From a virus (Duplodnaviria > Heunggongvirae > Uroviricota > Caudoviricetes), in the IMG/VR virus record IMGVR_UViG_2529293173_000003: 4,814 nucleotides of DNA, one strand, 5' to 3'. Below, in pieces: positions 3,001 through 4,814 of this stretch; position 1 is the first letter of the stretch, and each line of letters opens with the position of its first letter. Position numbers: made by a program.

Positions 3001-4814
3001 ATTAAAAACATGTTACCAATGTTAGGTGAAAAAAAACTGGTTTCATCCATAACAAAAGAGGATTTACTTTTCGTAAGGAGAGATTTGTTGACCGGTTACC
3101 AAAAGCTTTCTAATGGAAAGACTTCTTCCATAAAAGGGCGCTCAGTGGTCACGGTAAACTACTATATGACAACCATAGCTGGAATGTTTCAATTTGCAAC
3201 AGATAATGGTTATACCTCAGGAAACCCATTTAACGGTCTGGCTCCCTTAAAAAAGTCCAAGGTAAAACCAGATCCTCTCACCCGTGACGAATTTATTCGT
3301 TTTATTGAGGCTTGCCGTCATCAACAAACAAAAAACCTGTGGATTCTCGCTGTATACACGGGTATTCGTCACGGGGAGTTGGTATCGCTGGCATGGGAAG
3401 ATATAGACCTTAAAGCAAGGACTATAACCATCCGTAGAAATTATACAAAACTTGGCGAATTCACTCCACCAAAAACCGATGCAGGCACCGGAAGGACAAT
3501 TCATCTGGTTCAACCAGCTATTGATGCTCTTAAAAGCCAGGCGGAAATGACCATGCTTGGAAAGCAACATTCTGTAGAGGTGAAGCAGAGGGAATATGGG
3601 AGAACTGCTGTGCATAAATGCACTTTTGTTTTTAGTCCTCAGGTAACAAAACAGCAGCAGTTGTCCGGACCTCACTACAAGGTTGACTCCATCAGGGAGT
3701 CATGGACAAGTATCTTAAAACGCGCAGGTCTGAGACACAGAAAATCGTACCAATCCAGGCATACTTATGCATGCTGGTCACTTGCCGCAGGAGCTAATCC
3801 TAGTTTTATCGCAAGCCAGATGGGCCACACAAACGCACAAATGGTATTCAATGTTTACGGAGCATGGATGAAAGACAACAATCACGAACAGATAGAACTC
3901 CTTAACAAAAGACTATCTGAAAGTGTCCCATGTATGCCCCATAAGAAAGCAGGGTAAAATAAAAACTTGCAAAATCAATTAGTTTACCCTTAATCCCTGT
4001 CACGTTACGCGCGTGACGCAACATTTTTAAAAATCGACGAAGATCGTCCAGGAGCGCCGTTTTTCAAGGGTTGGATAGATGATTCGTTTACCATGTCGAT
4101 GAACTTCGACGAATTTCGCCGATAAAAAGTGTCCCATACATGCCCCATTGATGCCCCATAAACAATATCAGGAATTGACACTGGTTATCCATACAGATAA
4201 AAATAACACCTGTACATAACTACAGTTACAGGAGGGTGTTATGCGTGTTGAGATCTGTATCGCTAAAGAAAAAATCACTAAAATGCCAAACGGTGCTGTG
4301 GATGCGTTAAAGGAAGAATTAACCCGACGCATCAGTAAACGTTATGACGATGTAGAGGTGATCGTAAAAGCCACCAGCAACGATGGCCTTTCTGTTACGC
4401 GCACCGCCGATAAAGATTCAGCTAAAACTTTTGTTCAGGAGACGCTGAAAGATACCTGGGAGTCTGCTGACGAGTGGTTTGTTCGCTAATAAACACGTAA
4501 ATCGGTAACGGCTGGAAATCATTCAATACTCGCACTATCGAAAGTTCACCAGCCAACCGCGACACGCTCTTACATACGAAGTGCCGCGCTTTCCTTAATA
4601 ATTTTTTAGCAGTACTGTGTAAATAATGAGCGACCTAATCCATGCATGACGCGTAGTGCCTATTGTGCATCTTTCTGCGTCTCTTTTTACTGGACCCAAG
4701 CCAATGATGCTGGCGATACCATTCCCGCCAGGCCCACTTACAACAGTAAAATTCGGAGCTCTGCCTTTACATACAATACAATCTACCTAACAAATATCCC
4801 CCGGACATTGCAAC

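Follow-up and report, generated by a model that had tools for sequence, protein, structure and literature searches.

A long spacer behind dinI in an Sp15-type Stx1 phage: a probable decayed dinI–ykgJ cargo cassette

What occupies the 325 bp that follow a DinI-family gene in the viral sequence IMGVR_UViG_2529293173_000003 (Caudoviricetes; 4,814 nucleotides, the whole of which we call the window)? The initial annotation of positions 4490–4814 saw no credible open reading frame (ORF) and no obvious terminator there, and thought of a small RNA (sRNA), a regulatory region for a gene beyond the window, or decayed mobile DNA. The window is the int–attP–dinI end of a Shiga toxin 1 (Stx1) phage of the Sp15/VT1-Sakai type (attP and attB being the phage and bacterial attachment sites). 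Very probably these 325 bp represent the distal portion, now decayed, of a cargo ('moron') cassette that consists of dinI, a block of about 105 nt, and ykgJ and that, in lambdoid phages of the Sp15 type, is flanked by the integrase/attP end on one side and by the convergent tail-fibre genes on the other. The long 'empty' spacer of a well-studied Shiga-toxin prophage is thereby explained as a decayed cassette, which carries little weight as a finding, although it does correct the impression that the spacer serves some gene lying past the window end.

The ykgJ remnant and the dinI–ykgJ cassette

Decayed mobile DNA was essentially the right guess: some 175 bp out of the 325 derive, as a pseudogene fragment, from a phage-borne gene of the ykgJ family, and the remainder is the conserved tail of the dinI cassette. 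On the plus strand, DNA identity to the core ykgJ gene, together with BLASTP, marks out a 5' fragment at 4626–4738. Its ATG is at 4626, and a 1-nt deletion after 4636 leads to a stop after 7 codons. Once the frame is restored, 24 of 34 residues match YkgJ residues 5–38 (BLASTP, 71%, E = 4e-15), with the CxxCxxCC motif, CMTCGACC in YkgJ, reading CMTRSAYC. Homology stops at 4738, where a 50-bp insertion (4739–4788, plus strand) that has no counterpart in core ykgJ interrupts the remnant, and it resumes at 4789. There the 13-nt stretch AACAAATATCCCC (4789–4801, plus strand) equals ykgJ codons 40–43 at 13/13 positions and is collinear with the main alignment (subject position 545, then 547); having an E value of 0.3 when taken alone, it is tentatively, and probably, the last piece of the remnant. 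The remaining positions, 4802–4814, form the junction to the tail-fibre module, as judged from two longer, identical copies.

Homology to ykgJ is thus clear, but the other marks of a gene of this family are not there. The uninterrupted ORF of about 109 codons expected of the PF03692 family is absent, the cysteine motif is lost, and the remnant has no Pfam match, while an intact phage-borne YkgJ (locus L192, described below) hits PF03692 with 43.5 bits against a cut-off of 23. The segment from 4626 to about 4801 is therefore, by its sequence, a pseudogene fragment (frameshifted, cysteine-less, interrupted and truncated) rather than a member gene of the YkgJ family. Truncation is the rule among E. 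coli-type phage records, where ykgJ is truncated in 51/51 and ends at residue 38 in all but one; the lone exception runs on to residue 46, where its record, a partial one of 2,155 bp, stops.

This remnant also bears on the ORF content of the spacer. As the initial annotation held, there is no complete ORF of at least 60 aa in 4490–4814, the longest being 44 aa on the plus strand and 47 aa on the minus strand, and all three minus-strand frames entered at 4814 stop near that end (at 4769, 4785 and 4789). What it missed is a plus-strand frame that stays open for 68 codons to the window end and that, with an ATG at 4646, gives a 67-aa ORF ending about 33 nt past the window (read from the longer copy L001). 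This open frame is the ykgJ remnant, annotated in VT1-Sakai as 'H0002 hypothetical protein'.

In other prophages the cassette is whole. Two viral contigs, L191 and L192, carry a DinI 96% identical to that of the window, then the block, then a full YkgJ (94% identical) with a PF03692 match. The contig L192 is a prophage interior that reads, in order, host dus, integrase, a perfect LexA box, dinI, block, ykgJ and then tail-fibre genes; past ykgJ stand a DUF4376 gene, whose position suggests a tail-fibre-assembly role, and, on the other strand, a gene for a tail fibre. Several other contigs have a ykgJ that is full-length yet frameshifted. Because intact dinI–block–ykgJ cassettes exist in other prophages, we read the window copy as a decayed moron cassette.

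The first gene of the cassette is intact in the window. It encodes an 82-aa DinI-like protein (4241–4489, plus strand; Pfam PF06183 DinI, E = 1.2e-19) and is identical to Sakai ECs_2939. Two LexA-box-like sites precede it, CTGGTTATCCATACAG (4181–4196) and CTGTACATAACTACAG (4210–4225), and overlap a promoter-like site, TTGACA-N18-AAAAAT (window 4175–4225); at the equivalent place before dinI the intact cassette of L192 has the perfect LexA box TACTGTATACAAACACAGTA. The phage dinI is probably SOS-induced.

Lambdoid morons are units of promoter, cargo gene and terminator. The cassette shares with them its own regulated promoter (the LexA boxes), small cargo genes and a terminator-type hairpin; in the window, the LexA-box promoter-like site, dinI and the hairpin are all found between int/attP and the tail-fibre genes. 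It is unlike a typical moron in having two genes with the hairpin between them, the second of which is decayed in the window.

Upon DNA damage, dinI would be transcribed from the LexA-box promoter, with a start about 30 nt ahead of the gene, and its transcript would end at, or be trimmed back to, the hairpin in the block, the block acting as dinI 3' untranslated region (UTR) and terminator. The block would also keep read-through from entering the tail-fibre genes on their antisense side. Since no separate ykgJ promoter is visible in intact cassettes, some transcription would there have to leak through the block spacer into ykgJ. For the window copy, with its weak hairpin and dead ykgJ, the role may be limited to ending the dinI transcript, and possibly to offering a homology patch for recombination between phages. 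The region is largely ordinary and has been described before: the tail of a dinI moron, probably under SOS control, with a weak putative terminator, then what is left of ykgJ and the joint with the tail-fibre module.

The chromosome holds a counterpart. A match of about 86% to window 4495–4738 occurs in 5240/5426 complete E. coli genomes and lies in the ecpE–ykgJ spacer and the first 114 nt of ykgJ. This core spacer, which also holds a copy of the block, contains a decayed dinI that runs from about codon 24 to the stop, has a 22-bp deletion, and begins 20 nt after the ecpE stop (L003 2838–2996; NC_000913.3 about 304320–304475, minus strand); RefSeq K-12 has no annotation on it. Compared with the window, the K-12 ecpE–ykgJ (b0288) locus has the 3' part of dinI, the block and the ykgJ start in collinear order, at about 76% over 431 nt and 86% over a 244-nt core match. 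Decay has gone opposite ways in the two: in K-12, dinI is dead (without its first ~23 codons, and with the 22-bp deletion) and ykgJ is intact and a RyhB target, whereas the window has an intact dinI and a dead ykgJ. We therefore take them as two decayed versions of one dinI–block–ykgJ unit, and the chromosomal ecpE–ykgJ spacer, at least, would seem to be of phage origin. The published chromosome-to-phage view is therefore qualified, and a phage origin of the spacer, perhaps of ykgJ as well, is worth reconsidering against that direction.

The regulation of ykgJ allows a side comparison. The gene has been validated as a target of RyhB (Wang et al. 2015, PMC4666370), to which, as we read the sequence, ACUGG and GAGCAAU around the core ykgJ start (L003 3105–3145) are complementary. 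At the same positions in the window (4610–4640) stand ACUGU and GAGCGAC, so that the predicted RyhB pairing site would be degraded too.

Could the spacer instead be the promoter or 5' UTR of a gene just past the window, as the initial annotation proposed? Apart from the length of the region nothing speaks for this, and we find it scarcely tenable. Two loci, L001 and L002, match the window at 100% identity and carry on past its end; in these identical copies, a hairpin follows 4814 and then minus-strand tail-fibre genes from about window 4857. In all identical copies the next genes are on the opposite strand with their ends facing the region; the adjoining sequence, convergent tail-fibre genes plus a terminator-like hairpin, contradicts the proposal. 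In Sakai about 367 bp separate dinI from ECs_2940, the minus-strand gene that comes next. The terminator-like hairpin, AAAACCGGAGCCGGACTCCGGTTTT, begins about 5 nt past the window end in the identical copies, and this hairpin between the ykgJ remnant and the tail-fibre genes is likely a bidirectional terminator. In L001 it occupies 8330–8355 (about 5–30 nt past the window end), pairs perfectly as AAAACCGGAG-CCGGA-CTCCGGTTTT, and is bordered on each side by runs of A and T.

The conserved block, its hairpin and RNA 3' ends

Between dinI and the ykgJ remnant lies the conserved non-coding block (4497–4607, plus strand), defined by homologous copies. Its 5' part, about 60 nt, is conserved; a hairpin comes next, and then a T-rich tail. 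The block is the likely 3' UTR and terminator of dinI. Distant BLAST finds the block alone in many lambdoid phages: lambda (24169–24253), HK106, HK75, HK633, the Stx2 phage 1717 and ev207. Further copies are in phi330 and in the cryptic prophage Qin of K-12, about 190 bp inside its ydfJ end. In K-12 coordinates the Qin copy spans 1632466–1632576 and the core copy 304213–304320. A pattern scan yielded 83 unique variants, with sharp edges and variable flanks. True copies are confined to Escherichia/Shigella records, or are the lambda copy in short, low-coverage contigs of unrelated assemblies; we rejected other pattern matches in unrelated taxa as chance. The assemblies with the lambda copy include Chromatiales, Pseudoxanthomonas, Kitasatospora, Pseudomonas, Enterococcus and others (L012, L015, L017, L019, L021, L025, L029 and others), and several of these contigs are short with coverage near 1–2x, which looks like contamination of the assemblies with lambda DNA.

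The copy in lambda itself lies in the b region, between ea31 and ea47, is 84.7% identical, shares the hairpin, and is oriented as leftward (int-sense) transcription. Lambda differs in having neither dinI nor ykgJ and in a post-hairpin tail that is not T-rich (CTCTACC); the lambda record used has no annotated feature at the block copy.

We looked at whether the block might be coding. Two plus frames are open through it, and their frame relation to dinI is not kept; the window copy has a 1-nt deletion at the block start, which breaks that relation, and a coding role was rejected on this ground. In several genomes the NCBI Prokaryotic Genome Annotation Pipeline (PGAP) calls a 22-aa fragment of a 'capsid protein' pseudogene at 4500–4565, minus strand (L001 8011–8076), most likely a spurious call on a conserved non-coding segment.

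The window hairpin, CGCGACAC / GTGCCGCG (4558–4588, plus strand), has 8 pairs, one A-C mismatch and a 15-nt loop; 4558–4565 pair with 4581–4588, and the fold of this sequence by itself gives −9.1 kcal/mol. In the relatives the stem is of 11 bp (CCGCAGCACGT / ACGTG-N-CTGCGG), with −15 to −25 kcal/mol in most, a strong copy being exemplified by CCGCAGCACG...CTGCGGTTTTTCTTTTT. The window hairpin would thus be a weakened copy of the family's terminator stem. The observation in the initial annotation that no obvious terminator follows the gene consequently needs amending: a hairpin with a T-rich tail does stand 69 nt after the dinI stop, although it is indeed weak here. That tail, CTTTCCTTAATAATTTTTT (4589–4607, plus strand), read from the sequence, is T-rich yet interrupted; many relatives have TTTTTC or TTTTCTTT, a feature not found in lambda.

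The stem of the family covaries. Across 76 sequences, 8 of its 11 pairs have changed on both sides, and 90.5% of stem cells are paired. When partners were slid out of register over both tested helices, 25–58% were paired, against 91.7% unslid. RNAalifold recovered only 6 of the terminator-stem pairs. The second tested helix, GGCTGG/CCAGCC, is almost invariant, shows almost no covariation, and was set aside as uninformative.

Published RNA data place RNA 3' ends at the homologous hairpins of K-12. Among the 'orphan' 3' ends that Adams et al. (2021, PMC7815308) mapped in K-12 by Term-seq are 304213/304212 (minus strand) and 1632571/1632574 (plus strand); for 304213 the read count is about 99,298, the Rho score 1.44 (not significant) and the intrinsic score 2.78, and we find that this end sits 31 nt before the ykgJ start. 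The sequences printed for both 3' ends are the tails of two block hairpins, those of the core and Qin copies, a coincidence that the study does not discuss. The hairpin therefore marks RNA 3' ends in vivo in the K-12 copies. From an alignment of the window with the core copy of K-12, in which the Term-seq strings locate the K-12 end, the RNA 3' end in the window would be expected near 4603, at about 2896648 in Sakai.

Several points weigh against the account given so far, of a terminator-bearing cassette of phage origin. The window hairpin, at −9.1 kcal/mol, is among the weakest of the family, and a simple terminator scan misses it because its loop exceeds 8 nt. The intrinsic-terminator score of 2.78 for the K-12 end falls just below the authors' cut-off of 3.0 (PMC7815308), and the K-12 3' ends could therefore reflect processing rather than termination; moreover, the 3'-end data come from the K-12 homologues. 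The 5' part of the block is moderately constrained, with a nucleotide diversity (pi) of 0.056 in a sample picked with a fixed pattern, which makes its near-invariance partly an artefact; for comparison, pi in dinI is 0.101 at third codon positions and about 0.01 at first and second. Lastly, a phage may have captured the block and ykgJ from the chromosome by recombination in the dinI remnant, which would reverse the direction of exchange between phage and chromosome.

If RNA ends at the hairpin, might the block itself be an RNA? An RNA role is possible, given the K-12 3' ends and an antisense peak nearby (EcOnc47, below). More specifically, the block could be, or be processed into, a plus-strand regulatory or cis-acting RNA of about 100 nt, either an sRNA from the dinI 3' UTR or a leader/attenuator before cargo genes. 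The arrangement of a conserved 5' part followed by a covarying terminator-type hairpin fits this, as do the abundant 'orphan' Term-seq ends at both K-12 copies. By our own count the core and phage copies agree at about 93% of positions, more closely than the sequence on either side: the dinI remnant next to the block is far more diverged and gapped, and the adjoining 5' part of core ykgJ is near 86%. Also, the block lies upstream of a same-strand gene in several settings: ea47 in lambda, an ECs2227-like gene in 1717, sitABCD in ev207, ynfT–ydfK in Qin and ykgJ in the core genome.

Other observations tell against such an RNA, and we consider it unlikely. In the window, the core copy, L192 and Qin alike, no σ70-like promoter is predicted within the block or ahead of it; none is conserved either, the left flanks differing by context. 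The covariance-model (Rfam) scan of the window gave a single match, to CssrB on the minus strand, with E = 0.16 and 22.6 bits against a gathering score of 76; in four related loci it found the neighbouring ssrA transfer-messenger RNA (tmRNA) and one chance-level long non-coding RNA match elsewhere, with nothing at the block, and no family was significant in any of these five. The second candidate helix is almost without covariation, the 5' part only moderately constrained, and the hairpin weakened in the window copy. Our search of the Sakai table from Hfq cross-linking and analysis of cDNA (CRAC; Tree et al. 2014), by coordinate prefixes and locus tags, found no plus-strand peak at the region, and a literature search with the block sequence as text found no match. 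The proposal of an sRNA made in the initial annotation accordingly fared poorly, with a chance-level Rfam match, no promoter-like site and no plus-strand CRAC peak from that search.

Known RNAs were compared with the region. AgvB and AsxR are located at the PR' moron site and do not overlap it; EcsR2 is in the yagU–ykgJ spacer, on the other side of ykgJ, and does not overlap either. For HnrS, a check limited to abstract and outline gave no overlap, and a term search of a preprint on the Pas sRNA returned no mention of dinI, tail fibre, ykgJ or Sp15. EcOnc43 (Sp5), tried as a possible copy of the block, is not one.

With the same low probability, the block would be an undescribed, widely spread lambdoid RNA element, be it a discrete small RNA or a leader/attenuator ending at the hairpin. 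Were that true, the element would be present in lambda, in many Stx and other prophages and in Qin, with a core copy fixed before the RyhB-controlled ykgJ, and the published 'attachment site' discussed below would be a by-product of conservation, a homology patch for phage recombination. The coincidence of the block with strong, uncharacterised K-12 RNA 3' ends makes it worth RNA work.

A different RNA reading concerns the minus strand: the region might drive or carry an RNA antisense into the dinI 3' end, namely the Hfq-bound EcOnc47, and so act as promoter or 5' part of an antisense regulator. Table S2 of Tree et al. (2014) gives EcOnc47 at Sakai 2896476–2896522, minus strand, in Sp15, from 4 CRAC data sets. 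It maps to window 4431–4477 (minus strand), adjoining the region, if the coordinates, which are from an older Sakai release, hold; EcOnc43 and EcOnc22 map sensibly in the current release, and any coordinate shift is therefore small. However, the peak falls outside 4490–4814, the table gives no northern validation for it, no minus-strand promoter-like site is found in 3900–4814, and the signal could be read-through of late tail-fibre transcription. We regard this antisense reading as quite improbable.

The attachment-site question

The same DNA has been interpreted before, as chromosome-derived DNA that serves as an attachment site. Nakamura, Ogura, Gotoh and Hayashi (2021, PLoS Pathog; PMC8112680) described a 96-bp 'attB-in-PP_2', with Sp15 at Sakai mlrA as a carrier; together with flanks of 184 bp and 29 bp, the 96 bp make 309 bp of carrier DNA that are 84% identical to ykgJ/ecpE. 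Our own alignment finds homology over window 4432–4738 at about 85%, and the block overlaps the published segment. Unlike that study, the present analysis takes in the dinI remnant of the chromosomal spacer, the intact prophage cassettes and the covarying hairpin at RNA 3' ends.

On the attachment-site interpretation, the block is a secondary site where another, lambda-like phage enters the resident Stx1 prophage by means of its integrase, giving a prophage within a prophage. This would be compatible with the decayed cassette; we hold it to be possible, though doubtful. Lambda-like prophages nested in PPmlrA, PPydfJ and a trg–rspB cluster have the 96-bp repeat at either end (PMC8112680), and the sharp edges and many flanks of the block are what repeated recombination at one site would give. 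The published assignment was, however, made from sequence analysis only. We re-examined one cluster, that of FRIK944 at mlrA (NZ_CP016625.1), and its layout was reproduced, yet the two copies there are about 80% alike, with a longest identical run of at most 14 nt, and each is contiguous with its flanks exactly as in phi330 and PPompW_EH2201. No crossover inside the block is therefore visible, and in this one cluster we find no evidence of the integrase crossover that the published reading implies. Homologous exchange between blocks would give the same picture. Furthermore, the integrase of the nested phage, WP_001500821.1, adjoins a 121-bp ompW fragment that is apparently its own attP. The copies flanking the nested prophage are at L186 3485–3590 and L187 2171–2270; the right one lacks 10 bp of the hairpin and is preceded by a dinI remnant of 40 nt.

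If the block were an attachment site, some integrase should use it, and among the two candidates examined (HK633 and the nested FRIK944 phage) none could be tied to it. The case of HK633 deserves attention because it supplies the sole database 'attP' label on the block. This label (GenBank JQ086377, 20680–20760; L006 2498–2578) covers block sequence and is annotated as similar to the ykgJ–yagV spacer. The HK633 integrase is IntS/Sf6-like, and its gene is 95% identical at the DNA level to IntS-type genes beside the tRNA-Arg gene argW in 1857 genomes, where argW is followed by int, the block and the tail fibres. HK633 itself has the final 15 nt of argW about 160 nt upstream of int (L006 1069–1083), as in the argW prophages of E2348/69 and PEC389. 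The true HK633 attP is therefore of argW type; the label was probably mis-inferred from similarity, and we rejected the block as the attP of HK633. Both the 'attB-in-PP_2' assignment and the HK633 label rest on similarity, which bears on how Stx prophage clusters are assembled.

Identity of the window and minor features

The assignment of the window to Sp15 is straightforward. Positions 1–4015 are 100% identical to the integrase end of VT1-Sakai (Sp15), and positions 4400–4640 and 4490–4814 are 100% identical to the opposite end of the Sp15 prophage; 4490–4814 is matched at 100% in VT1-Sakai and in many O157/O111/O26-type genomes. In Sakai, dinI (ECs_2939) is at 2896286–2896534 of NC_002695.2, and the start of the Sp15 feature, 2896062, corresponds to window 4017. 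In the window int is at 2671–3957 (Pfam: arm-binding and integrase domains), followed by attP and then dinI. The int and dinI ends, 48 kb apart in the Sakai prophage, are joined here near 4015–4017, and the window therefore reads as the excised, circular or tandem (attP) form of an Sp15-type Stx1 phage. In the free phage phi330, int, attP and dinI are contiguous in the same order.

The short palindromes listed in the initial annotation are present, CAGTACTG at 4610, CATGCATG at 4641 and ACGCGT at 4649, and we rejected them as a signal, since their frequency is no different from chance: shuffled sequences give 1.16 ± 1.07 8-mers where 2 are observed, and 4.8 ± 2.2 6-mers where 5 are observed. 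A tRNA/tmRNA scan found none. Within 3958–4240, at about 4139–4165, the motif ATGCCCCA is repeated and may mark candidate integrase arm sites; a motif similar to ATGCCCCA is seen at the Qin end too (L061, about 4415–4430).

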